A stretch of 64,000 bases of DNA from a phage (GCA_011911785.1 GCA_011911785.1_4084.1), one strand, 5' to 3'; counted from the first letter of the stretch, positions 25,451-44,266 are shown. Numbers and translations: made by a program. The notes: generated from the sequence alone by a model not told the origin.

Positions 25451-25483
25451 AGGTTGACTAACGTCAGCCTTTTTTGTTATACT
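25451..25483 (+). terminator. terminator hairpin fused to extended -10 promoter (TGtTATACT)
   Basis: AGGTTGACTAACGTCAGCCT hairpin, T-run, then -10. Confidence 0.6.
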
Positions 25484-29735: not shown

Positions 29736-29768
29736 AGGTTGACTTCGGTCAGCCTTTTTTGCTATAAT
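29736..29768 (+). terminator. terminator hairpin (UUCG loop) fused to extended -10 promoter (TGcTATAAT)
   Basis: AGGTTGACTTCGGTCAGCCT, T6, TGCTATAAT. Confidence 0.7.
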
Positions 29769-30084: not shown

Positions 30085-30345
30085 ATGCAAAACCCTGAAT
30101 TGAAAATGTTTACACAAATCCGTCTTGCTCGTGTTGAACATGACACTAACTATGTACTGAACGATGGTCCTCCACAACGCGTTGAAGTTGGTTATATTGA
30201 CGTTGATAATTCACAATCTCTTCTGATTACCATTGGATCTAACTCTTACAGTGTTGCTACACTGGAGAGTGTATTGTCCCTGGCACAATCCGCAAGGATT
30301 GCCCGTAACGCTCTTATGAACTGTGATGAACCTGATAATGAATGA
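30085..30345 (+). CDS. hypothetical protein
   Basis: ATG after GGAGATATCTA. Confidence 0.55.
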   Translation: MQNPELKMFTQIRLARVEHDTNYVLNDGPPQRVEVGYIDVDNSQSLLITIGSNSYSVATLESVLSLAQSARIARNALMNCDEPDNE

Positions 30346-30676
30346 TTATATGTATGAATTAAACCTGGTATCGTTTATCGTATCAGGACTAGGATGGATG
30401 TACTATATGCTTGGGTATATTTTATTATTCTTCCGATACAATACATTCTACAAACGCTATTGGGATGATGCACCAATTCACTTCTTCGCATTTGTATTCT
30501 TAACTATGGCAGTGGGTGAAGTACTGCTAACTGGTATCCAAAGTACTGGTGGAATGATGTGCACACTAACAACATTCTTTGTTGTTTTTGGGACTGTAGT
30601 TTGGTTTTTCGCGTGGGGACTCTTCTCTTTGATTATGAAACTTGAGAAACTCCGAGACAAATTACCAGAGCGTTGA
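30323..30676 (+). CDS. multi-pass membrane protein (start uncertain)
   Basis: Hydrophobic; overlaps end of previous gene. Confidence 0.45.
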   Translation: MMNLIMNDYMYELNLVSFIVSGLGWMYYMLGYILLFFRYNTFYKRYWDDAPIHFFAFVFLTMAVGEVLLTGIQSTGGMMCTLTTFFVVFGTVVWFFAWGLFSLIMKLEKLRDKLPER

Positions 30677-32263: not shown

Positions 32264-32701
32264 ATGACACGCATTAACTTAGTACACGTTAAAGAACTTG
32301 CTGACCAACATCTGATGGCTGAATATCGTGAACTTCCACGTGTGTTTGGTGCTGTACAAAAACATGTTCAAGCACGTAAGCGTGTACGTGATTTCAAAAT
32401 TAACAGTACTTATCTGTTAGGTTCAGGTCATGTAACATTCTTCTACGACAAGTTACTGTACTTACAGAAGCGTCATATTGATATTGTTAACGAATGTTTG
32501 CGTCGTGGTATGAAGATTCAAAACACTGAAGTAAACGACATTAGCGGCTTCCCTGCTGAGTTTTGTAATGACTACGTACCATCGGAGTCCGAGATTAAAA
32601 CATCACGCGAGCGTTTGATTGAGAAGCTTCAGATGAAGCCTAAGTGGTATAAGTTTACTGATGTTGAGCTACCTGTATATTATGTTGATATGATACAATG
32701 A
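32264..32701 (+). CDS. denV: endonuclease V (pyrimidine dimer DNA glycosylase/AP lyase), T4 DenV-like
   Basis: [35 protein letters not shown]...[10 protein letters not shown] matches T4 endonuclease V as recalled from memory along most of its length. Confidence 0.9.
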
Positions 32702-32990: not shown

Positions 32991-33227
32991 ATGAAACTAT
33001 CTTTTATACGTTTAGCAGAATTCTTCGGTACTGATGTAATTACTCTACAACAAATCGCAGATAATACATCATTAACTACGCAAGAAGTACTTGACTTAGA
33101 TGTAATTAAGAGCGATAATACTTCCATTGATTTCAAAGAAGGTCTTGTCGAAAAAGATAAGATTCAAGCTAAGATTCATGGTGCTGGGCGGGTTCAGTAC
33201 TGGAAAGGAGTTTTAAGTAATGTTTGA
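32991..33227 (+). CDS. hypothetical protein
   Basis: ATG after AGAGGTAACAC. Confidence 0.5.
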   Translation: MKLSFIRLAEFFGTDVITLQQIADNTSLTTQEVLDLDVIKSDNTSIDFKEGLVEKDKIQAKIHGAGRVQYWKGVLSNV

Positions 33228-34347
33228 ACAGTACTATTTTAATGAAGATGGTGAAAAAGTTTATTTTTATGAAGAGCATGGAATGCTTTTTGAGTGGATG
33301 AAAGCCGAAGATATAAATTTTGTAAAAAAATCCAACATTGCTCAAGATCCTATTAGTATTATGGGTGAAATAAATGATCCAAGAGTTCTTGGATTCTATA
33401 TCAATAGATCACAAGATTATATATCTAAATCAAAAACCAAACTTGTAGTGAATAACGATGGTATGTTAGTTATTGGAGCCACCTGCACGAATTTTATTAG
33501 GCAGGGATTTAATGGGAAGATTTTTTACAATATTATTAATATTCCATATTACAGCCTTAATCATATTAGTGTCATCAACAAAAAATATGGTTATGATAAA
33601 TTTACTTATAGTGGAATAACTTCGTTTAACTCTACACTTCCTAGTAGAACTAAAATTGAAGTAGTATGTAATGATTGTGGTGATATAAAAAAACCCACAA
33701 TTACTGACTTAGCTACTGGTAAAATTGGTTGTCAAGAATGCACGAAACAAACTTTAGGTGAATTTATAAAAAAATCACATCTTATACACGGAAATAAGTA
33801 TGATTATTCTTTATATGACTACATTAACAACCAAGTAACCTCTATTATAATATGCAAAGAACATGGTGAATTTCAACAAACACCAAATTCACATCTGTCT
33901 GGTTCTGGTTGTCCCACGTGTGCAGTAAAAGGATTTAAAACTTCCAAGCCTGGAAGATTTTATATTCACAATGATTATGCAAAAAAATCGGATAAAGCTG
34001 GTATTACAAACAAAACTATTAAAGCAAGATTAAGTCCACAAAACTTATCTTATAAAAAAATATATAAAGTAGATAATTTTTGGAGTAATGAAATTTCCAT
34101 TTTATTTCATAAGAATGTGGGTGGGAAACTTGCTAGAGAATTGGAAATAATAATACATACAATTGCGTTATGTGGTAAACTATATAATAAAGGTTATTAT
34201 GAAAAGGGAGATGGTTGCACAGAAACATTCAATAATATCCATCGTCCTAAAGTTAATGAAGCCATTAAAAAATTCTTAGCTGAACATGAAGGAGAATACA
34301 TCATTGAACGTGATATCAATGGTATTTTTGGTGAAGTGATTGTATAA
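33220..34347 (+). CDS. hypothetical protein with Cys/His zinc-ribbon-like motifs (possible nuclease)
   Basis: CNDC, CQEC, CKEHG, HLSGSGCPTC motifs; function not established. Confidence 0.5.
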   Translation: MFEQYYFNEDGEKVYFYEEHGMLFEWMKAEDINFVKKSNIAQDPISIMGEINDPRVLGFYINRSQDYISKSKTKLVVNNDGMLVIGATCTNFIRQGFNGKIFYNIINIPYYSLNHISVINKKYGYDKFTYSGITSFNSTLPSRTKIEVVCNDCGDIKKPTITDLATGKIGCQECTKQTLGEFIKKSHLIHGNKYDYSLYDYINNQVTSIIICKEHGEFQQTPNSHLSGSGCPTCAVKGFKTSKPGRFYIHNDYAKKSDKAGITNKTIKARLSPQNLSYKKIYKVDNFWSNEISILFHKNVGGKLARELEIIIHTIALCGKLYNKGYYEKGDGCTETFNNIHRPKVNEAIKKFLAEHEGEYIIERDINGIFGEVIV

Positions 34348-34355
34348 AACAAAAA

Positions 34356-34387
34356 GGTTGACTTCGGTCAGCCCTTTTTGCTATAAT
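34356..34387 (+). terminator. terminator hairpin (UUCG loop) fused to extended -10 promoter
   Basis: GGTTGACTTCGGTCAGCC, T5, TGCTATAAT. Confidence 0.7.
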
Positions 34388-34415: not shown

Positions 34416-35189
34416 ATGAACCGTACAGAGAAAGCAATCCAAATCGAAAAGAACTTCAACTCCATGATGGCAGCACTGGAATGTCTTCTTGATACACAAA
34501 CTAACTCTATCAACTCTCTGATCGTTTCTGGCAAGGGTGGTGTTGGTAAAACTTTCAACGTTGACCAACGGTTGCAGAAAGCTGATGACAACTTTGAAAT
34601 CGACTACAAGAAAATCAGTGGCAAAGTAACTACTGTTGGTCTGTACGAAGCACTGTATCGTTCACGTCACGCTGCTTCAGTACTGTTACTTGATGATGTT
34701 GATATCTTCTCTGATGAGACGAATATTGATTTGCTTAAAGCTGTATTGGATACTTCTGAGAAGCGTGTAGTATCTTACGCTACTTCTGCTAAGTACCTGG
34801 AACAGCAGGGTATCCCTAAGCAGTTTGAATTCCGTGGTAAAGTAATCTTCCTGACTAACAAAAACCTGTCACAGATTGCTAAAGGTAAAAGCAGTTTAGC
34901 ACCACACATTGATGCACTGATCACTCGTAGTATCTTTGTTGACCTGCAACTGTTCACCAACGAAGAAGTGATGATTCACATTGAGAACATCATGAACAAA
35001 ACTAACATCCTTGAAAACAATGGTGTTAACAAAAATGGTTGTAAAGCAATCCTGAACTGGATGCTGAGCAATGAAGACCGTCTGCGTAGTCCTTCACTGC
35101 GTATGCCAGTACTGATCGCTGGTCTTTACAATAAATTCCCATACGACTGGGAATCAATGGCTGAAAATATGTTCCTGGAGAAAAATTAA
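34416..35189 (+). CDS. P-loop NTPase (Walker A GKGGVGKT, Walker B LLLDDVD)
   Basis: Walker A/B motifs read directly. Confidence 0.6.
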   Translation: MNRTEKAIQIEKNFNSMMAALECLLDTQTNSINSLIVSGKGGVGKTFNVDQRLQKADDNFEIDYKKISGKVTTVGLYEALYRSRHAASVLLLDDVDIFSDETNIDLLKAVLDTSEKRVVSYATSAKYLEQQGIPKQFEFRGKVIFLTNKNLSQIAKGKSSLAPHIDALITRSIFVDLQLFTNEEVMIHIENIMNKTNILENNGVNKNGCKAILNWMLSNEDRLRSPSLRMPVLIAGLYNKFPYDWESMAENMFLEKN

Positions 35190-35408
35190 TTGATAACATA
35201 TAACATCGATAAGGTCATGTTATTATATGCATGTATTAACATGATTGTCGTTTTAGTTAAAGTTTATAGATGGTTTCATACACTTGATATTGATACTGAA
35301 AAGGAGTATAATCCTCAAGAAGCATCTCTTGGATTAAAAATTATTGTTTTAATTAGCGTAGTATCCGTATACATGGTATTACTATCAACTATGATTAAGT
35401 TCACTTAA
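35190..35408 (+). CDS. small membrane protein
   Basis: Hydrophobic; first of eight consecutive small membrane-protein genes. Confidence 0.45.
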   Translation: MITYNIDKVMLLYACINMIVVLVKVYRWFHTLDIDTEKEYNPQEASLGLKIIVLISVVSVYMVLLSTMIKFT

Positions 35409-35418
35409 CGAGGAACAT

Positions 35419-35751
35419 ATGATTAATTTATTTTCAACTGAGGTTATGATTAAAATTACATTAGTATACATGTGTCTATTCGTATACTACCACGCTCTCA
35501 TCGGAATCTTGTGGTTCTTTAAGAAAGGTCGTCTTCTTGAGAAATTGTACCCAGACTATATGATATTGTATACAATCGTCCAGGGTGTAGGAATAGTACT
35601 GGGAATTCTAGTGCACTTGATATATTTGTTTGAACCACACCTTCCGTGTATTACACAATACATTGTATTCGGAACTACTATTATGTGGCTTGTAATGATG
35701 GGTGTGTATGGTCTGTATTTGTACAGGAAACGTATAGTGGGAGATTTCTAA
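35419..35751 (+). CDS. small multi-pass membrane protein (WFFKKGR motif)
   Basis: Hydrophobic helices; paralog motif. Confidence 0.5.
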   Translation: MINLFSTEVMIKITLVYMCLFVYYHALIGILWFFKKGRLLEKLYPDYMILYTIVQGVGIVLGILVHLIYLFEPHLPCITQYIVFGTTIMWLVMMGVYGLYLYRKRIVGDF

Positions 35752-36104
35752 TGCAAGAGGTTATTAAATGGTTGACAACCAGTGATATTGCTAGTACACT
35801 GAACTATGTACTCATTATCTTATATCCGTTTTTGATGGTTCTAAACTTCATTGGATGGTATTTCAAACGTCCAATTTACTACAAGATTAATAATTCAGAG
35901 TACTATGAAAGTGTTGTAATTGCAACCTCAATCACGTATACTATGGGTGCAGTTCTTACAGTCATAGGATTAGGTCAAGGTGATAATCTTAACTTTATGC
36001 TATGTACCTTTGTTATGATATGTATTCCAACACTAATTGTAATTCTATCGAATATTGTGTGGAAAAAAATGTTATTTGCACGCAACAAAATACCGGAGGC
36101 ATAA
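35751..36104 (+). CDS. small multi-pass membrane protein (WYFKRPIYY motif)
   Basis: Internal ATG after GGGAG; TAATG overlap. Confidence 0.5.
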   Translation: MQEVIKWLTTSDIASTLNYVLIILYPFLMVLNFIGWYFKRPIYYKINNSEYYESVVIATSITYTMGAVLTVIGLGQGDNLNFMLCTFVMICIPTLIVILSNIVWKKMLFARNKIPEA

Positions 36105-36439
36105 TGGAGTACTTTATCAGTTTACTACCGTGGTACTTGAAAGTAAGTACAATTTACTACATCATTTCCGCTGGGTTTTATTTCTTGATGTGGTTCTTTA
36201 AACGTCCAATCAGTGAATTCATCGATAATCATCTGATGAGTTTTAAACTTCACTGCTGGTTTTGGTCATCGTCAGTGATGCCATTCATCCATTACGGAAT
36301 TATCAGTACTGGTAAACGTTCTAATGGTGAAATAATTTCCTTGGGTTTTTACTGGATATCGACTATTGTTTACATTGGTGTGCTTTTGTATCCATTTGTA
36401 GTTAAACTACGAAACTCTATCCCAGATCACAGGAAATAA
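36104..36439 (+). CDS. small multi-pass membrane protein (WFFKRPISE motif)
   Basis: Internal ATG after GGAGGC. Confidence 0.5.
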   Translation: MEYFISLLPWYLKVSTIYYIISAGFYFLMWFFKRPISEFIDNHLMSFKLHCWFWSSSVMPFIHYGIISTGKRSNGEIISLGFYWISTIVYIGVLLYPFVVKLRNSIPDHRK

Positions 36440-36440
36440 T

Positions 36441-36761
36441 ATGAAGATTGAATTGATTCTTTTCACAGTAAGTGCATTCTACTTTTGGGTTTGCTGGATT
36501 GGTTTTCTCTTTGCACTAAAACCATTTGACTTCTATGCAAAGCAGTGTAAAAATGCTGCTGTTGGTAATGTAGCTTTTACATTGCTTAGTACATTATGGG
36601 TAATACTGCTTATATTCAATCCACCTGATAATGATTTGGAAATGTCATTGTGTACATTATTTGCAGTCCTGTGTGTATTCGCAGCATTCTGTAGTTATAT
36701 TGGAAAGTTATGTTCTTTGGTATCAAATTTCCATCGTAAACAAAAAGATAAGAGGGTATAA
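36441..36761 (+). CDS. small multi-pass membrane protein
   Basis: Hydrophobic; tight array. Confidence 0.5.
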   Translation: MKIELILFTVSAFYFWVCWIGFLFALKPFDFYAKQCKNAAVGNVAFTLLSTLWVILLIFNPPDNDLEMSLCTLFAVLCVFAAFCSYIGKLCSLVSNFHRKQKDKRV

Positions 36762-37144
36762 TGTACACAACAATATATGTTATTCTTAATATCCTAAGTG
36801 CATGTCTAACAATAGGTGCATTAATATACATTGGAAAGTTCTTTTGTGTAAAGTTCGTCGAAGATGTGTATGAGGATATTGAATACGACTACGAATCTAA
36901 GTGCTTCTTCCATGTTGGATATATCATTTGCTTAGTAACTACTATCTTCACATGGATTGTATACGTATTCGGGATTGGAATCACTTCAATTGGTGAACCA
37001 GTACTGTGCATTATTGGATTAGTGTTTTCTTCAATATTCGGGTTATTGTTCATGATTATTCTTATGTATAATTTAATCTGTACTGCTATTGTTCCTTTCT
37101 TTTATGAAATTCACAATAACATTAAACGTAAGAAACGAGGTTAA
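36761..37144 (+). CDS. small multi-pass membrane protein
   Basis: TAATG overlap. Confidence 0.5.
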   Translation: MYTTIYVILNILSACLTIGALIYIGKFFCVKFVEDVYEDIEYDYESKCFFHVGYIICLVTTIFTWIVYVFGIGITSIGEPVLCIIGLVFSSIFGLLFMIILMYNLICTAIVPFFYEIHNNIKRKKRG

Positions 37145-37146
37145 TT

Positions 37147-37500
37147 ATGTTTTCTCCTGCTGGTCAAGTTATATTCATGTTATGTACACTGGTATTCTTT
37201 ATGTTATCTGTACTACTTGTGATGAAATTCTTTCACATGAAACCATTCAGTACTTGGTATGATAATATTGTGTACTATATTGGTAATGCTATAACACTCT
37301 TTTCAGTTGCATACTATTTCGGTTATTTTGCAATGCTATTTGGGTTATTACTTGAAGCTCGTGCATTGCTTGTAGCTGGTATGGTGGCAGATTTAATGTG
37401 TCTAACACTAGCCTGTATTGGATTTACTGTATGTATGTCGTTAACCATTTTTGACAAATTATGTAAACTACACAAACGTTTAGGTGAGAGGATGAAATAA
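37147..37500 (+). CDS. small multi-pass membrane protein
   Basis: Hydrophobic. Confidence 0.5.
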   Translation: MFSPAGQVIFMLCTLVFFMLSVLLVMKFFHMKPFSTWYDNIVYYIGNAITLFSVAYYFGYFAMLFGLLLEARALLVAGMVADLMCLTLACIGFTVCMSLTIFDKLCKLHKRLGERMK

Positions 37501-37883
37501 TGACTTACCGTGATTACTTTTGTATTTTTGAAATTGCAGTATTCGCTTTAGGTTCAGTCTGGTTACTTCTATACTACTTCTGTATTAATCCAGTATTCAA
37601 TTGGGTTCGTCGTGCTGAACAAAGTAGTGCTGGACAAATAGCAGTTGTTATGGGTATGACATATTATATGTTCGCCGTAGCTTCTGTTGTTATTGAAGTA
37701 ATATTTGGTGGCATGAATGGTGATGATGGGGCAACGTTCTATGGATTCGTAACATTCTTTAGTGTGCTGATTCCGTGTGGTGCTCTTATTATTACTGCGT
37801 TCTATTGGCTATATCGTGGTGTTAAGAAGCTGGAATCAATTCACGTAGATATGCGTTCAAAACGAATGGGGATTGACAAATAA
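37500..37883 (+). CDS. small multi-pass membrane protein
   Basis: TAATG overlap. Confidence 0.5.
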   Translation: MTYRDYFCIFEIAVFALGSVWLLLYYFCINPVFNWVRRAEQSSAGQIAVVMGMTYYMFAVASVVIEVIFGGMNGDDGATFYGFVTFFSVLIPCGALIITAFYWLYRGVKKLESIHVDMRSKRMGIDK

Positions 37884-38434
37884 TGAAACGAAGTTCTAAT
37901 GTCATTCGTGAACGATTTCGTAAAGTAAAAACTATTAAGTACGGGACTATTGCTCTTGTACTTAGTAGTACTTTTATTATGACAGGATGTGAACGCTCTG
38001 AAGATATTTCTGTATATCAGAATGTGGACCAATGTAAAAGAAGTGGTAGCAATCCGGTACAATGTGAAGATGATTATAAAAAAGCCCTAACTGAATCGGA
38101 AAAGGTAGCACCAAAATATAGTTCACAGAGTGATTGCTCAAGCGATTTTGGTAATCAATGTCAACAACATAGTTCGGGATTCTTTTGGATTCCAATCATG
38201 AGCGGGTTCCATAGTAGTGGTAATGGGTTTGCTAGTCAACCACTATACAACTCTAAAGGGAACTACTATGATGCTGGTGGTAACTCCTACGGTAGCAGTA
38301 CTGCAAAAGGTACAACACGTACTGTATCAAGTTCCGCATTAGCTCCAAAACCTCCTACAACGACCACAATCACCCGCAATGGGTTTGGGTCTTCAATAGC
38401 CAGAAGTGCCGCTCACACGAGTTCTGGTGGATAA
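37883..38434 (+). CDS. lipoprotein (lipobox IMTGC), Gly/Ser-rich C-terminal region
   Basis: Signal anchor plus lipobox; convergent with the first beta-propeller gene. Confidence 0.55.
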   Translation: MKRSSNVIRERFRKVKTIKYGTIALVLSSTFIMTGCERSEDISVYQNVDQCKRSGSNPVQCEDDYKKALTESEKVAPKYSSQSDCSSDFGNQCQQHSSGFFWIPIMSGFHSSGNGFASQPLYNSKGNYYDAGGNSYGSSTAKGTTRTVSSSALAPKPPTTTTITRNGFGSSIARSAAHTSSGG

Positions 38435-38435
38435 T

Positions 38436-38464
38436 AAAAAAGCCCACTTAATGTGGGCTTTTTG
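38436..38464. terminator. bidirectional intrinsic terminator (AGCCCAC...GTGGGCT)
   Basis: Hairpin with A-run upstream and T-run downstream. Confidence 0.7.
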
Positions 38465-41398
38465 TTATTTGTGTTTTATGTGTAAAGTATCTAATATTGT
38501 ATTGAACAATGATTTAGCAGAAATCATGATTACTTGATCAAAATCTTTAGTATAAGAAATATTAGCAGTACTGGAAGAATCTTTCACCTCATCCGGTAAT
38601 GCATCAAACTCTTCTTTTTCCATAATCTTTTCAAGTTCTTCACGAGAAATGGCTTTTACGTTTTCAATAGTCCTTAGTTGTATATTATAATCTTTATAAT
38701 ACGAAACTAAGTTCGTTGCGTATGAACCATCTTTAGATGCTGTTCCAGTAAAATCATAACATCCTGTATCAGTACTAACCCAATCGATTTTCCCTGAGCT
38801 ACCACTATATACACCTTTGTTAAATTTAATATTAACAACATCGCCAATAGTTTTCAATATACCACCTTTACATTCATTAAATGCGTTTAATTGATAACTT
38901 GTAGTCATATAGAATTTCGGTTCTAATGTAACAGTATCACCTACAGTTGCTTTCATGTCAGAAACACTTAAGAACAATTCATTAAATCCTTTTGAATAAG
39001 TCTTGGTAATTGTTGTTCCATCCCTGTTAGTTACTGTGTATTCTAAGTCCAATTCACAAATACTATTCAATGATAAGTAAGGGATATCAAATTTATCAGT
39101 ACTAGCATCATAAGGACATCTTGATGATGGTAGTATACCAGTAGGGTTTGGTACGTATTGAACTTTTGTTAACTCATACCCGCTTGCATTCGCTGGTGTA
39201 ACTGTAATAGACGGTGTAGATATTCCTTTCATTCCACAGAAGTATATGTTATCTGGAAAATCATTTATTACGAAGTCAGTGACAGGAATATCATAAGTAT
39301 CTTTATCAGTCCAATTGAGAACAACATTAGAACTGGTTGGATCAACAATATGTTCACTAGAACCACAGAAATATACTGATTTGGTATTAGTAATCATTAG
39401 TAATGTTTTGGATGATGAGTTCAATTCAAGAACATCTTTCACTTCAAGACCAGATGGTAATGTCAATGGTAACTTCGTGAATGATGTTAAATCTTGTTCA
39501 TCTTTAACACCACTAGTCCCCGCCGGAAACTTACCTGAACCATAGAAAACACCTTTATTCGTCATGAAATACATGAACGGGGTTGATGTTCCTTTGTCAA
39601 ATAGTTTAATGTCATCACATGTTAAACCATCAGGTAAACTTACTTTAGATGGAGTTCTATAAACACCAGGCTTAATACCACCTTCACCATTACTTACATC
39701 ACCTAGTACATATAAATCTTTACCTAGTTTCAAGAACATTGATTTATTTTTAGCACACAAGAATGTATCATATGATTTATCATCAATTGGTAGCTTGGTA
39801 TATTCGGTGTATGTAGGTATTGAATCATCAATCCACGAACTATCACCACTAATGTAAATGTGATTGTTTCTGTCAATATAATATGAATACACATCAGTAC
39901 TGTTCATATATAAAGCATTTAGTGCATTTGTTTTCACTAAGTGATTGAACTTAAGAACTTGTTTTCCATCGTACTTATGGGAGTTGACACCAATATCACC
40001 ATTCAGGCTACTACCAAATGAATATATGTGACCACGTGGTAATAGAACTTGAACACCACTTTTGGTTAAATTATATTTGGAGTGCAAGAGATCGTTATAT
40101 ACAACTCTAACTTTCTTAAAGATATCAGTACATTCAATCCACGATTTAGATGGTGTACCATCCATTCCTATTATTGCTGGATCACCATAATAATAAGCTT
40201 TATTTTCATATGATATTTTAAAAGATGATTTACCATCTTTTGTATTAGCACTGAAATACACATCTTTACTATCTTTAATTGGATAAGTACTATTCTCTAC
40301 AAAAGTATTATATGAGATATCGTTGTTAGAACTATTAAGAACAAAAGAAGTAGATGTACTATTGGACTTATAGACTGCTACGGAAGATGTATCACTGAAA
40401 TCAATTTTAGTGAACGTATCTTTGTATGTTTCGTTTAATAATCCTACATAAAAAACATCAGTGCCATCAGTAACGAATATAGCATTTCTATTATTACATA
40501 AAGAAGTAATATTTTTTACTACTTTATTTGAATTATAGTTCGGTAACTTCTTTAATCCACGAACAAAATTATCACAAATAATACCAGTACCATAGAAGTT
40601 ATAATCTTTATCACAGTATATAAATGCTGTATCATATGGTGAAGTACTTAAATTCTTATAGAATGGGAATGGAGTGAATGTGAATTGTAGAACATTACGC
40701 AATTCCCCTACTGTCTCTGTTGGGAATTGTCTGTTTTTATTATTTCCAAGAAAAACAACTCTATCTGTTAGGTATGTGTACATAATTCCATATGGTTTTA
40801 CGTACAAGTCATTATATCCTAATGATAATTTAGTTGGTGATGTTAGTGGACCGGAATTTATTTTATTTTGGTTAAAAGAAAATTCATTTGAATTATAACC
40901 AGCCCCATATGTATTACCATCAGTACTTAAATAATATACAGTAGCTTCCCCTGCTCCAAGAAAAGTCTTTACATCAGTTGCTAACGTTTTTTTGAAAGTT
41001 GGATAAAATTTATTATATGTTCCCGTTCCCATCATCAGTTCACCATTGCGGTTATGACCACGAGCATATAGAATACCTTTGTCTGTATCTAAGAAGAACA
41101 TACCATTATATGTTTTGTAAATCTTACCTTTTGTAATATCGAAATTGGAAAAATCATCACTAATATCAATGAATATCGTCTCAAGGTTATTTTCAAGGGA
41201 GTTTAGAGATTTACCACAATACCATACTGAGTTATCTTTTTTAACAGCAACACAACCACACGGACTGGCATCAAAATATGTTACATCGGAAAGAACCAGA
41301 GATAAGTTCTTTGTACTGCAATAATTATCCATTGCATATAAATCGGAATCTTTAAGTATATATACGGAATTCCCTACCGCTTTAATCGAATTTATCAT
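38465..41398 (-). CDS. large beta-propeller-like protein with RCC1-like repeats (~977 aa); possible adhesin/fibre
   Basis: Start at ATG 41398 (GAGGA SD) preferred over 41488; recurring YxxGxNxxGxLG-type repeats; lacks the MLPFVR N-terminus. Confidence 0.55.
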   Translation of the reverse strand: MINSIKAVGNSVYILKDSDLYAMDNYCSTKNLSLVLSDVTYFDASPCGCVAVKKDNSVWYCGKSLNSLENNLETIFIDISDDFSNFDITKGKIYKTYNGMFFLDTDKGILYARGHNRNGELMMGTGTYNKFYPTFKKTLATDVKTFLGAGEATVYYLSTDGNTYGAGYNSNEFSFNQNKINSGPLTSPTKLSLGYNDLYVKPYGIMYTYLTDRVVFLGNNKNRQFPTETVGELRNVLQFTFTPFPFYKNLSTSPYDTAFIYCDKDYNFYGTGIICDNFVRGLKKLPNYNSNKVVKNITSLCNNRNAIFVTDGTDVFYVGLLNETYKDTFTKIDFSDTSSVAVYKSNSTSTSFVLNSSNNDISYNTFVENSTYPIKDSKDVYFSANTKDGKSSFKISYENKAYYYGDPAIIGMDGTPSKSWIECTDIFKKVRVVYNDLLHSKYNLTKSGVQVLLPRGHIYSFGSSLNGDIGVNSHKYDGKQVLKFNHLVKTNALNALYMNSTDVYSYYIDRNNHIYISGDSSWIDDSIPTYTEYTKLPIDDKSYDTFLCAKNKSMFLKLGKDLYVLGDVSNGEGGIKPGVYRTPSKVSLPDGLTCDDIKLFDKGTSTPFMYFMTNKGVFYGSGKFPAGTSGVKDEQDLTSFTKLPLTLPSGLEVKDVLELNSSSKTLLMITNTKSVYFCGSSEHIVDPTSSNVVLNWTDKDTYDIPVTDFVINDFPDNIYFCGMKGISTPSITVTPANASGYELTKVQYVPNPTGILPSSRCPYDASTDKFDIPYLSLNSICELDLEYTVTNRDGTTITKTYSKGFNELFLSVSDMKATVGDTVTLEPKFYMTTSYQLNAFNECKGGILKTIGDVVNIKFNKGVYSGSSGKIDWVSTDTGCYDFTGTASKDGSYATNLVSYYKDYNIQLRTIENVKAISREELEKIMEKEEFDALPDEVKDSSSTANISYTKDFDQVIMISAKSLFNTILDTLHIKHK

Positions 41399-41618
41399 GT
41401 TTATATCCTCATAAATTGATACCAATTCTAATGTATTTACCCACTTAAAGTACAAAAAATGATCAATTAAATGGGGAATCTTTAACAAATGAATTCATGA
41501 TGTACTTGATGAATTGCCCATACCAACGGATTCCCCAGTCCCAGCATACCACATGGTATTATCGAACTTTTTTATCATTGTAGTATCATAACCACACCAA
41601 ACATCATCAACATTAGTA

Positions 41619-42971
41619 TTACAACAATTGTATTTCTGTGAGTGTTTGATATGTTGTACCGTTGTACACACCTCTCCAATATACCCTACCTTCAGTACTA
41701 ACCACTAATAGTCCATATGTTGTAAACCCAAGAGTACCACCAACATACATAGCATCTTTAATTCGAATACCAATGTCTTCATATGTAAATGAAGCGACTG
41801 CTCCCGCTTGCCACGAAGGACTAGCGTAGTAATCACTATAAACACCATGTGCTTTATATATTGATGTTGTTCCTGGTTCAAAAATTACAGTTCCACAGTA
41901 GTTCATTCGTATTTTAGTACTGGATGAAGTCGGTACATTTATACCTATGCCATCTTTTATCCCTGTAGTTAGGACGTTAAAACCACCCGCCACACGGTTG
42001 ACGTCATTCTCACCGATTAAAAACATACCAACGTTGTAGCCCATATAATATACACTGCTACTGCCATTCCAGAAAGAAAAACCACCACCATTACCACAGC
42101 GATATAGTTGTGAATTTGAGCAGTACATCATACCTTCGTTTGTCGCATCAAATTCATCTGCTGTTCCTATTGTAGCTACAGTAGTCCACGTTTTAATCAC
42201 TTGGTTTGTACTAGCTGGTGTTTGTATACCATATCGTATATTATATCCCTTACCAACGATTGTACCATCTTCTAATTTAGCATAAAGTACAGGTCTATTA
42301 CCAACAAAATACATATTATTGTGTGACATGTCTATTGTGCATCTTAATGAAACTACTTTTTGTGTCAATTGATTATCTTTAGTAAAAGAAGTAAAGTAGT
42401 AATCCGATGTTGAGTTGTTTATTAAACCTTGTATTGACAATCCCATATACCAGATTTCACCATTGCTGTTTAATGCTGCCAAAATACAACTATATTTTGA
42501 AGTGTATGCTGGTGATGTTGTTGAAGTTGCTGGTCCTTTATCATATCCACCACAGAATACCATCTCCACAACTTCACCTACGTTCGCAAAATAAGAAGAT
42601 ACATTGATAAAACCATTTGTTATAAAAGGTGCTGTATTCATACTTGAATGTGTGAATATCCCATTTGCATATACACCACAAAAATGATATGAACCATCAT
42701 TATCTTGGACTATTATTCCATTTGATAGTAACCAAAAATTGTTTACATTTTTTCTTACTAATTCAACTCCTGCACCATTGGTTGGTGTTATACCAAAAGA
42801 AACATATTTTGTTTGACCAATACCATATAAATTTCCATTAGTTGCTAGTATTGCACCAAACCAGTTCCCACCACCATTCCTATCATGACCCATACCAATG
42901 GAGTCGAATTTCTTTACAGTAGGAACTTCAACTTTATTCCCATACTCTAGCATTCTAACAAAAGGTAACAT
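41619..42971 (-). CDS. beta-propeller family protein, MLPFVRMLEYGN N-terminal module
   Basis: Start at internal ATG behind AAGGAGGA; shared N-terminus; RCC1-like repeats. Confidence 0.65.
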   Translation of the reverse strand: MLPFVRMLEYGNKVEVPTVKKFDSIGMGHDRNGGGNWFGAILATNGNLYGIGQTKYVSFGITPTNGAGVELVRKNVNNFWLLSNGIIVQDNDGSYHFCGVYANGIFTHSSMNTAPFITNGFINVSSYFANVGEVVEMVFCGGYDKGPATSTTSPAYTSKYSCILAALNSNGEIWYMGLSIQGLINNSTSDYYFTSFTKDNQLTQKVVSLRCTIDMSHNNMYFVGNRPVLYAKLEDGTIVGKGYNIRYGIQTPASTNQVIKTWTTVATIGTADEFDATNEGMMYCSNSQLYRCGNGGGFSFWNGSSSVYYMGYNVGMFLIGENDVNRVAGGFNVLTTGIKDGIGINVPTSSSTKIRMNYCGTVIFEPGTTSIYKAHGVYSDYYASPSWQAGAVASFTYEDIGIRIKDAMYVGGTLGFTTYGLLVVSTEGRVYWRGVYNGTTYQTLTEIQLL

Positions 42972-43016
42972 ATATCCTCCTTTATTCATTATATTATATT
43001 TAATCAAAAAAGAAAA

Positions 43017-43035
43017 GCCAGTACAGAGTACTGGC
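43017..43035 (-). terminator. intrinsic terminator (GCCAGTAC-NNN-GTACTGGC), array cassette
   Basis: Perfect 8-bp stem followed on the minus strand by a T-rich run. Confidence 0.6.
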
Positions 43036-43046
43036 ATTTAAAATAA

Positions 43047-44222
43047 TCAAAATGTAGGAAGTTTGAATTCTCTCATAACAGATGAACTGCTTGCAGATAC
43101 ATTATCTGGTGATTTCCCTGCGTAGTATAATTTATTATCAATGAACATATACAATGTTGCATCATTTCCTGCTACAAGCGATTCACTTTTCTTAAATTTA
43201 ACACCACTAGGTAAAATTGCTTCAACAAATGAACCTGATTCTCGTGTAGTATTATTTGCCAATTGACCATTGTTATTATAACCAGTACTATAAATTTTAC
43301 CTGAACTATAATATACGAGTCCACGAGTACTAGTGTTTTCTATTCGAATGAATTCACTATCATCTGGAACTGTCGTTGATAGTACTGGGTTTAACTTATA
43401 AGCAGATGATACATTATTATTACCCAATTGACCATAACCTTGAAAGCCTAGTGTATACATAGGACATGATTCTGGTGTACCTTTTGTTATAATACCAATA
43501 TAATTCGTACTACAAAAAATGTCTATTACTTCTGTAATAGGTGTACCCTTATATTGAACCCAAGGGAATACATACGATTGTTGCTTACCATTTCCCAAAG
43601 TACCGGAAGTTGTTGTCCCAGTACGCCACATTGTATCATCAAGTTTAATAATCCAGTTAGCTGTCGTTATCGATGAACAGAATTTTTTAACATTATCCAC
43701 TAAAAATGTAAATTGATTATAATATGATGCAGTGTTTATACCAAACTTAGCACCAGTATTATCACCTAACAAATATAAACTATTATCTGTACCTAAAATC
43801 AAAGCATAATCATAACCCACGTATATATCTTTAATTCTTGAAATTCCAAATTGTGTAAAATAGCTTGTACATTCTGTGAATGTTGTTATATTATTGGTTG
43901 TATTATTACCCAGCCATTTATCTAAACCACTATAAAAGAATCTATCATCATTTGTGCGTATTAGACAAAAAGCGTTCATTGTACTGCACCAAAAATCTTT
44001 AACATTGCTATATATTTTTGTCCATTCAGTTAGTGGATTAGTATGACCTAAACCAAAAATTCCACCATTCTGAAGACCAATAGCCCATATTGAACCATTT
44101 TTATCAAGCATCATTGTACATGTATGTGAATAACCACCCGATGGTGTAACTAATTTAACAAAATTGGGAATATATGGTAAAACTTTATTTCCATAATCCA
44201 ACATTCTAACAAAAGGTAACAT
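43047..44222 (-). CDS. beta-propeller family protein, MLPFVRMLDYGN N-terminal module
   Basis: Conserved start context and N-terminus. Confidence 0.65.
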   Translation of the reverse strand: MLPFVRMLDYGNKVLPYIPNFVKLVTPSGGYSHTCTMMLDKNGSIWAIGLQNGGIFGLGHTNPLTEWTKIYSNVKDFWCSTMNAFCLIRTNDDRFFYSGLDKWLGNNTTNNITTFTECTSYFTQFGISRIKDIYVGYDYALILGTDNSLYLLGDNTGAKFGINTASYYNQFTFLVDNVKKFCSSITTANWIIKLDDTMWRTGTTTSGTLGNGKQQSYVFPWVQYKGTPITEVIDIFCSTNYIGIITKGTPESCPMYTLGFQGYGQLGNNNVSSAYKLNPVLSTTVPDDSEFIRIENTSTRGLVYYSSGKIYSTGYNNNGQLANNTTRESGSFVEAILPSGVKFKKSESLVAGNDATLYMFIDNKLYYAGKSPDNVSASSSSVMREFKLPTF

Positions 44223-44266
44223 ATTCCCTCCTTTATTCATTATACTATATTTAATCAAAAAGAAAT

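Follow-up and report, generated by a model that had tools for sequence, protein, structure and literature searches.

Imm and Sp of phage T4, Llp of phage T5, and Ltp of Streptococcus phage TP-J34 are small envelope proteins made early in infection. They comprise inner-membrane proteins and, in some cases, a lipoprotein, and they provide superinfection exclusion in virulent or temperate phages. How does a tandem run of small membrane-protein genes in a jumbo phage compare with these systems? The run lies at positions 35190-38464 of a 64,000-nucleotide stretch of phage DNA (the window, by which we mean the whole stretch) and consists of eight genes for small hydrophobic proteins followed by a lipoprotein gene. 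The source of the window is a Rak2-like jumbo coliphage. Escherichia phage A4 (Asteriusvirus, 355 kb) matches the interval 35190-38464 at 98.8% identity, and other Asteriusvirus genomes cover only ∼10% of this interval, at ∼70% identity. Two traits of the Imm/Sp type, an early promoter and inner-membrane topology, are predicted for the locus from its sequence. The module has no sequence or fold similarity to Imm, Sp, Llp, or Ltp, and these known exclusion proteins are encoded by single genes, whereas the family in the window is a tandem of a kind with 4 to 9 members.

A family of three-helix membrane proteins and a DUF1190 lipoprotein

Open reading frame (ORF) listing and translation placed nine genes, g1 to g9, on the plus strand at 35190-38434. 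Eight small hydrophobic ORFs (g1 to g8) abut one another, with grand average of hydropathy (GRAVY) values of 0.47 to 1.08, and are followed by the gene for a hydrophilic lipoprotein (g9; GRAVY, −0.62). A hydrophobic gene run of this kind had been described in the first-pass annotation of this DNA and is borne out by the ORF coordinates, translations, and GRAVY values. Each of the nine genes is preceded by a Shine-Dalgarno sequence and ends in TAA. Five of the gene junctions are 1-nucleotide (nt) TAATG overlaps, and the remaining gaps measure 0 to 10 nt.

Are the small membrane proteins related to one another? Pairwise BLAST and phmmer searches among the window proteins gave indications of relatedness that were suggestive at most. 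The syntenic genes of phages 121Q, vB_Ec-M-J, RaK2, GAP32, Serratia BF, and Xanthomonas XbC2 were sorted into orthologue sets (groups G2 to G8), whose profiles we aligned by hhalign; reversed alignments served to control for composition (highest reversed score, 22). The comparisons yielded scores of 29.7 for G2-G3, 50.0 for G3-G4 (full length), 34.1 for G3-G5, 26.1 for G4-G6 (full length), 34.1 for G6-G7, and 35.7 for G6-G8, and more links with scores of 30 to 75 ran via Mimasvirus and Eneladusvirus groups. The family alignments are collinear, and a C-terminal (R/H)(N/K)K..KR tail is common to the members. Because the hhalign scores exceed those of the reversed controls, the profiles place g2 to g8 in one paralogous family of three-helix membrane proteins. 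Throughout g2 to g8 we found a length of 105 to 130 amino acids (aa), three predicted transmembrane (TM) helices, an aromatic-basic motif after TM1, the C-terminal tail, and profile similarity. The motif takes the form W(F/Y)FK(R/K)(P/G) in g2 (WFFKKG), g3 (WYFKRP), and g4 (WFFKRP), which confirms the earlier claim that at least three of the proteins carry it after the first helix; degenerate forms (LFALKP, KFFCVKF, KFFHMKP, and YYFCINP) occur across g5 to g8.

The members of the array, which are translationally coupled, are, in order, g2 (35419-35751; 110 aa; group G2; orthologues, 121Q gp224/gp225 and RaK2 ORF311; phrog_19454), g3 (35751-36104; 117 aa; group G3; orthologues, 121Q gp226 and RaK2 ORF309/310; phrog_19046), g4 (36104-36439; 111 aa; group G4), g5 (36441-36761; 106 aa; group G5), g6 (36761-37144; 127 aa; group G6, with a GKFFCV motif), g7 (37147-37500; 117 aa; group G7), and g8 (37500-37883; 127 aa; group G8). 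The most conserved paralogue is g4, with 66% aa identity to 121Q gp227. The orthologue of g5 is divided between two ORFs in 121Q (gp228/229) and is whole in vB_Ec-M-J.

The first gene, g1 (35190-35408; 72 aa; two hydrophobic segments), stands apart. It has a TTG start with GGAG 9 nt upstream, and the stop codon of the preceding gene, which encodes an AAA+ ATPase, abuts this start. Its hhalign scores against the family were no better than those of the reversed controls, and on this ground we dropped the idea that g1 is a degraded family member. Paralogy, which had been proposed for all eight proteins, thus holds on profile alignment for g2 to g8 and is not detectable for g1. The gene was found only in phage A4 and has no PHROG match. 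GenBank labels the A4 homologue (A4_227, equivalent to window 35190-35408) "endonuclease V," which is evidently wrong; the true denV maps to window positions 32264-32701 (Pfam Pyr_excise; E value, 9e-15).

A solitary 117-aa ORF at 30323-30676 (plus strand) has three hydrophobic segments and ends in KLEKLRDKLPER. It matches the G3 profile with a hidden Markov model (HMM) E value of 2e-4 and an hhalign score of 28, in the tail only (reversed maximum, 23), and may be a borderline extra family member outside the array. The equivalent A4 annotation is a shorter, 93-aa form that would truncate the first helix.

Topology prediction indicated three TM helices and an N-out/C-in orientation for the family. 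Three hydrophobic segments are present in 44 of the 47 members, and the mean number of Lys plus Arg residues over the 47 is 0.41 in the N terminus, 2.7 in loop 1, 0.57 in loop 2, and 4.95 in the tail, a distribution that implies N-out/C-in by the positive-inside rule. In the predicted layout, a periplasmic N terminus is followed by TM1, a basic cytoplasmic loop carrying FFK(R/K)P, a short periplasmic loop 2 that is acidic or glycine rich, and a basic cytoplasmic tail. An AlphaFold2 (AF2) model of g4, computed from a 32-sequence alignment, agrees with the three-helix topology (predicted local distance difference test score [pLDDT], 82.9). Its helices span residues 2-31, 34-42, 45-67, 76-94, and 96-105, that is, three long helices, a short helix after FKRP, and a C-terminal amphipathic helix. 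The charge distribution and the model suggest that family members insert in the inner membrane, N-out/C-in.

Foldseek searches with the g4 model returned no match with an E value of <0.1 in the PDB or BFVD. A family profile run against 1.84 billion representative proteins gave 23 matches, all but one of which are 106 to 127 aa long and of the same type, and no bacterial family was among them. On these matches, the membrane family appears to be clade restricted. Pfam, NCBIfam, and PADLOC gave nothing informative for g1 to g8, and PHROGs places each paralogue in a separate family that is labeled either as of unknown function or with the generic term "membrane protein." Word-indexed protein searches return few matches for proteins this short and divergent. 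The g6 profile also recognizes members in phages EJP2 and 7t3. The 45 phage records that match G8, which come without exception from Asteriusvirus- and Alcyoneusvirus-type phages of Escherichia, Salmonella, or Klebsiella, each hold a single copy of it, and its identity to window g8 is ≤40% in every record but A4.

The order g8-g9 resembles an arrangement in E. coli, in which the gene for a small multipass inner-membrane protein, YjfL (DUF350; Pfam PF03994), lies directly upstream of the DUF1190 gene yjfM (PMC11237479). YjfL has four TM helices, whereas the phage family has three. Homology between the two was considered and rejected. Only 1 of 32 members matches DUF350, below threshold (g8, 17.8 bits against a cut-off of 26, which we judged to be chance), hhalign scores against YjfL are ≤18, the level of the reversed controls, and the family HMMs miss YjfL at E values up to 1.

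The last gene, g9 (37883-38434; 183 aa), encodes a lipoprotein of the DUF1190 (YgiB/YjfM) family. Residues 40 to 175 match Pfam PF06693 (DUF1190) with 109.8 bits (cut-off, 22; E value, 2e-31), and we assign g9 on this match as a full-length DUF1190 protein of the YgiB/YjfM type. The lipobox IMTGC noted in the first-pass annotation is confirmed, with Cys36 as the lipidated residue and Glu at position +2. Like YgiB and YjfM, g9 has a basic MKR..FRK N-terminal region, the lipobox, and four Cys residues in the mature part, which line up with the corresponding residues in YgiB, YjfM, and 13 homologues from phages or metagenomes; the APKY, WxPxMSG, SQPLY, TRxGFG, and C-terminal GG motifs are all kept. 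With a bacterial YgiB whose gene lies between tolC and ygiC, g9 shares 41% identity, and with E. coli YjfM, 27%. However, g9 is shorter than YgiB and scores 150.5 bits against NCBIfam PRK11653 (the YgiB equivalog; cut-off, 223); it is not a YgiB equivalog. Unlike the genes for YgiB and YjfM, g9 is not beside tolC or a gene for an ATP-grasp peptide-spermidine ligase (ygiC/yjfC), and the operon contains no such gene. A tblastn search with a YgiC homologue (query, L004 6697-7857) found 143 phage records, mainly of Acinetobacter and Aeromonas T4-like phages, phiRSL1, and others, and none from Rak2-like phages of Escherichia, Klebsiella, or Erwinia. YgiC and DUF1190 are thus found in different phage groups, and separate lineages have acquired the two halves of ygiBC.

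DUF1190 genes were found by tblastn in 144 phage records, which represent several groups of large phages unrelated to one another (Rak2-like genera, the Erwinia Ea35-70 group, T4-like phages of Citrobacter, and others); among the Escherichia phages of the collection, only A4 has one. GAP32 gp529, RaK2 ORF317, Serratia BF gp382, and the "YgiB-like lipoprotein" of Citrobacter phages Moon and Merlin belong to the same family (36 to 57% identity to g9), and the Moon genome paper gives the infection role of this lipoprotein as unknown (PMC4319498). In RaK2, GAP32, BF, and XbC2, the DUF1190 gene is at the same place as g9, the end of the membrane-protein array; in Merlin and Ea35-70, it stands alone, with no RCC1-like or membrane array nearby. 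The protein g9 is therefore a new member of a known, functionally obscure family, whose GAP32 version was already annotated as DUF1190. Between the window and A4, g9 has 13 synonymous and 2 nonsynonymous differences, a pattern indicative of purifying selection. No solved structure was found for g9 or for the AAA+ ATPase. We set aside a spanin reading of g9 on general knowledge rather than by a test: it is an early gene of the DUF1190 family, and no partner i-spanin was noted.

Where would the lipoprotein be sorted? We read sorting by the E. coli Lol +2 rule, in which Asp signals inner-membrane retention and which is a rule of thumb from E. coli proteins. The +2 residue is Asp, followed by Asp or Glu at +3, in most Rak2-like phage versions, Glu in g9, Merlin, and bacterial YgiB, and Ser in YjfM. 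By this rule, g9 is probably sorted to the outer membrane and most phage orthologues are probably kept in the inner membrane.

The transcription unit and its neighbors

The first gene of the unit (34416-35189, plus strand) encodes a stand-alone 257-aa ATPase that folds as a complete AAA+ module. It is a homologue of T4 NrdC.10 (phrog_1250), with ∼40% identity over the AAA+ core, and NrdC.10-like genes are conserved in >1,300 phage genomes. The window protein matches only positions 78 to 326 of the 327-position phrog_1250 profile, and T4-type versions of NrdC.10 appear to have ∼77 extra N-terminal residues by comparison. In RB69, the one T4-type phage examined, no member of the membrane family lies near the nrdC.10 homologue.

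Upstream of the ATPase gene, the likely start of the transcription unit is a cassette at 34356-34387 (plus strand; GGTTGACTTCGGTCAGCCCTTTTTGCTATAAT) that combines a hairpin terminator with a sigma-70-type promoter. The −35 element TTGACT lies inside the 5′ arm of the hairpin (fold, −13.8 kcal/mol; z, −4.5), and the extended −10 element is TGCTATAAT, so that the promoter at 34358 reads TTGACT-N17-TGCTATAAT, a consensus sigma-70 sequence. The same cassette precedes the AAA+ orthologue in A4, 121Q, vB_Ec-M-J, and RaK2, and analogous TTGAC...TAxxxT promoters do so in GAP32, BF, and XbC2, for a total of seven other phages. As a repeat, the cassette has the form GGTTGACTTCGGTCAGCC(C)TTTTTGCTATAAT, a hairpin with the −35 element in the 5′ arm, a T-run, and an extended −10 element; plus-strand copies lie at 29739, 32206, 32935, and 34358, with variants at 25454 and 28112. 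TTGAC-N16-19-TAnnnT sites in the window number 42 on the plus strand versus 6 on the minus strand, and the 34358 promoter is one of ∼30 of its kind on the plus strand between 1 and 35 kb. In phage CBB, RpoD-like promoters mark a presumed early host-takeover region (PMC5259590), and the dense plus-strand sites at 1 to 35 kb match such a region.

The unit ends at a bidirectional intrinsic terminator (38437-38463), AAAAAGCCCAC-TTAAT-GTGGGCTTTTT, a perfect GC-rich hairpin between an A-run and a T-run in a 30-nt intergenic gap. It folds on both strands (plus, −17.3 kcal/mol and z of −5.7; minus, −15.9 kcal/mol and z of −6.3) with U-runs on each, so the proposal that the lipoprotein gene and the first beta-propeller (RCC1-like) gene have a common terminator proved real. 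No internal terminator or promoter cassette was found between the 34358 promoter and the 38463 terminator. By these signals, the promoter and the terminator appear to bound one ∼4-kb, 10-gene unit that extends from the AAA+ gene to g9 and whose distal nine-tenths is the g1-to-g9 region, and the promoter type suggests that this unit is transcribed early by host RNA polymerase.

On the upstream side, a 375-aa homing-endonuclease-like gene (33220-34347, plus strand; phrog_681 "endonuclease"; treble-clef zinc finger) lies just 5′ of the operon. Its A4 counterpart is longer (∼565 aa; A4_225), and 121Q and vB_Ec-M-J carry different endonuclease genes at this place.

Downstream, the operon meets a convergent RCC1-like gene (38465-41488, minus strand; 1,007 aa). 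Five minus-strand RCC1-like genes are each preceded by the motif AAATATAGTATAAT (copies at 44252, 45514, 49153, 50369, and 52493), which does not occur on the plus strand, and each copy follows a GCCAGTAC...GTACTGGC hairpin. The motif may serve the beta-propeller array as a middle or late promoter. In phAPEC6 and GAP32, RCC1-like proteins are part of the virion (PMC7247149, PMC5259590).

Synteny and evolution of the module

A layout of AAA+ gene, 4 to 9 family members, DUF1190 gene (in some lineages), and convergent RCC1-like genes recurs in RaK2, GAP32, BF, XbC2, EJP2, Salmonella phage 7t3, and one metagenomic contig. Convergent RCC1-like genes were seen in BF, XbC2, EJP2, 7t3, and the metagenomic contig; RaK2 has a head protease gene after DUF1190, and no RCC1-like gene is annotated in the GAP32 stretch examined. 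DUF1190 is present in A4, RaK2, GAP32, BF, and XbC2 and absent from 121Q, vB_Ec-M-J, EJP2, and 7t3. Gene order thus indicates that Rak2-like jumbo phage genera share a syntenic module whose copy number depends on the lineage. Mimasvirus and Eneladusvirus arrays are interrupted by a second soluble protein of ∼255 to 266 aa (L007 2416-3180, L010 3363-4163, and L012 3131-3913) and have an acidic single-helix protein of 92 to 107 aa just before DUF1190; neither protein occurs in the window.

Lineage-specific duplicates are found in 121Q (gp224/225), RaK2 (ORF309/310), GAP32, and XbC2. G5 consists in 121Q of the two overlapping ORFs gp228 and gp229 (L002 5359-5674) and in vB_Ec-M-J of an intact 104-aa gene; the split form reflects either pseudogenization by a frameshift or an error in the sequence. 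Between the window and 121Q, the flanks are 92 to 97% identical, and the operon is 67 to 72% identical or unalignable. Together, the lineage duplicates, the copy number, the split G5, and the divergence hot spot form a pattern typical of accessory, conflict-facing genes. Window positions 38465-44180, which hold the first RCC1-like genes, including the 1,007-aa one, have no nucleotide match in 121Q (L014), and the RCC1 array from 44.2 kb on is 89 to 97% identical to 121Q; a second divergence hot spot thus abuts the operon.

Synonymous divergence (dS) between 121Q and vB_Ec-M-J spans 0.12 to 1.6 among the genes, a spread that indicates recombination within the array. In the same comparison, the ratio of nonsynonymous to synonymous divergence (dN/dS) is 0.10 to 0.40 for the membrane genes and 0.04 for the AAA+ gene. 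Are g1 to g9 more than chance ORFs? We conclude that they are because same-order orthologues of g2 to g8 occur elsewhere, the ratio of nonsynonymous to synonymous polymorphism (pN/pS) over g1 to g9 between the window and A4 is 0.21, and dN/dS stays within the range given above. These data point to functional genes that are subject to purifying selection, evolve rapidly at the protein level, and are exchanged in modules.

The exchange extends to the AAA+ gene. The window allele is 99.2% identical to that of phage UE-S1 but 58.5% identical to that of A4, whose allele is 98.8% identical to that of 121Q, and g1 to g9 are of the A4 type despite the UE-S1-type AAA+ allele. The swap is limited to the AAA+ gene (window 34416-35189 versus A4 L001 7230-8000), with both flanks A4-like at 96 to 97%.

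DUF1190 diverges in step with the AAA+ gene. Identities are 57% versus 53% to RaK2 and 43 to 45% versus 49 to 51% to the Mimasvirus and Eneladusvirus types. The simplest account of this pattern is ancestral presence followed by a later loss in the 121Q lineage. A recent, A4-specific capture of g9 from a host was rejected in view of the same position of the gene in RaK2, GAP32, BF, and XbC2 and by its divergence along with the AAA+ gene.

Possible functions of the module

What might the module do? The reading that we tentatively favor, on analogy with the exclusion proteins of other phages, is an early envelope-conditioning module that combines Imm/Sp-like protection by the membrane proteins with replacement of a host envelope-stress lipoprotein by g9. 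We favor it for its agreement with the timing, with the location, and with an evolutionary pattern typical of accessory genes. The first-pass annotation had itself named exclusion or immunity factors among the options for the membrane proteins, an idea that is still plausible. Host RNA polymerase would transcribe the unit right after DNA entry, and the small membrane proteins would insert into the inner membrane. The lipoprotein g9 would be exported and lipid modified and, by the +2 rule, would reach the outer membrane here and stay in the inner membrane in most relatives. The membrane proteins and the lipoprotein together would then condition the envelope of the infected cell, the former most likely as Imm/Sp-like blockers of secondary attack by superinfecting phages, colicins, or lysis from without, and the YgiB copy would replace or boost a Cpx-regulated host lipoprotein after host expression is shut off. 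In the host, ygiB is Cpx regulated, and its loss leads to envelope-stress phenotypes (10.1101/2022.08.05.503015; PMC13435647).

Several points weigh against this reading. The exclusion and conditioning roles are suggested by analogy, through early expression, location, and evolutionary pattern. With gene-wide dN/dS below 1, the data do not demonstrate an arms race, and fast divergence is also expected of small membrane proteins under weak constraint. Between Asteriusvirus and Alcyoneusvirus, g2 to g6 and g8 correspond one to one, and G8 occurs in every matched record of these groups; such a pattern would be expected of a stable core function rather than of a volatile exclusion arsenal. The sorting prediction from Glu or Asp at +2 has the limits of an E. 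coli rule of thumb. Host YgiB is itself a predicted outer-membrane lipoprotein of unknown molecular function (PMC11762307). Ordinary explanations remain, as jumbo-phage genomes hold many such accessory membrane genes.

A somewhat less probable alternative, although the strongest of the rivals, is envelope housekeeping alone, in which the module buffers membrane stress over the long jumbo-phage cycle in the manner of auxiliary metabolic genes and has no exclusion role. The YgiB copy would do the job of host YgiB, and the small proteins would stabilize or reorganize the inner membrane. The retention of every conserved DUF1190 feature by g9 under strong purifying selection is as expected on this account, as are the envelope-stress contexts of bacterial DUF1190 genes (the tolC operon, the Cpx regulon, and PspA-linked operons) and the stable one-to-one orthology of the paralogues across two genera. 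However, DUF1190 is dispensable, since it is missing from most Asteriusvirus genomes, EJP2, and 7t3, and copy-number variation, a split paralogue, and allelic mosaicism would be unusual for such functions.

We regard as rather unlikely, again on analogy, that the tandem paralogues form a multispecific immunity array in which each member blocks a different envelope-crossing attacker while the YgiB copy acts at TolC or in the periplasm. The attackers may include the injection apparatus of another phage, a pore-forming colicin, or a membrane-acting abortive-infection effector.

Slightly less likely still is a membrane machine driven by the AAA+ protein, in which the basic cytoplasmic motifs of a seven-paralogue hetero-oligomer provide the docking sites for the NrdC.10-like ATPase, the lipoprotein is the periplasmic partner, and the whole acts as a transport or remodeling complex. 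The ATPase is a core gene of the >1,300 phages noted above, and its RB69 copy has no family member nearby. Furthermore, ATPase alleles just 58% identical (UE-S1 type in the window and 121Q type in A4) have been exchanged against the same array, and the array itself varies from 4 to 9 copies, with one member split in 121Q.

Class I holins such as lambda S105 have three TM helices, an N-out/C-in topology, and a basic C-terminal tail. Could the paralogues be holin- or antiholin-like proteins that time lysis, as class I proteins like lambda S do? The first-pass annotation had raised a holin-like role, and the resemblance in size (∼105 to 127 aa), helix count, predicted topology, and basic tail stands; the remaining evidence makes this role improbable. 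The unit has a consensus early promoter and not the motif of the convergent virion-protein genes, the family forms a tandem of seven, and the unit neither contains nor adjoins an endolysin or spanin gene. None of 32 members matches a Pfam holin family at E values up to 0.1, and none falls in a lysis PHROG. A Rak2-like endolysin, a signal-anchor lysozyme, is encoded elsewhere (121Q gp532; PMC5259590), which also counts against the holin reading.

Least probable of all is a receptor-masking role for g9 as an outer-membrane lipoprotein tied to the neighboring RCC1-like genes, as T5 Llp is encoded beside its receptor-binding gene: although Glu at +2 predicts outer-membrane sorting, RCC1-like proteins are virion components in two relatives, and the convergent adjacency is seen again in BF and XbC2, this analogy from the first-pass annotation lacks support because g9 belongs to the DUF1190/YgiB family, of host origin with conserved motifs, and is unrelated to Llp/Cor-type dedicated blockers; it ends a sigma-70-type early unit, while the RCC1-like genes form convergent units with their own AAATATAGTATAAT motif; most phages with the same RCC1 array do without DUF1190 (121Q, vB_Ec-M-J, EJP2, and 7t3), and some with DUF1190 have no such array nearby (Ea35-70 and Merlin); the gene downstream of RaK2 DUF1190 encodes a head protease; most orthologues have Asp at +2, a misfit for an outer-membrane mask; and a receptor-binding role of the RCC1-like proteins is only putative.

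Rak2-like jumbo phages are under development for therapy against E. coli and Klebsiella, and >80% of their genes are without known function. The general kind of protein described here, early phage envelope proteins, is already known. The membrane family is undescribed in Pfam or in the searchable literature, where our searches turned up no work on the array or on the function of NrdC.10, and its unification and operon context are new. Seven separate PHROG singletons and their relatives in other genera are merged into one clade-wide membrane-protein family, which is assigned to a defined early operon whose synteny is conserved. If the module does exclude phages or colicins, it would bear on cocktail design and on competition between phages. 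If the phage YgiB substitutes for the host protein, it would offer a route to the function of a conserved, Cpx-regulated lipoprotein of the tolC operon. Were the paralogues to prove an immunity array, they would represent a new class of phage-encoded envelope shield and would provide the first functional handle on DUF1190/YgiB.

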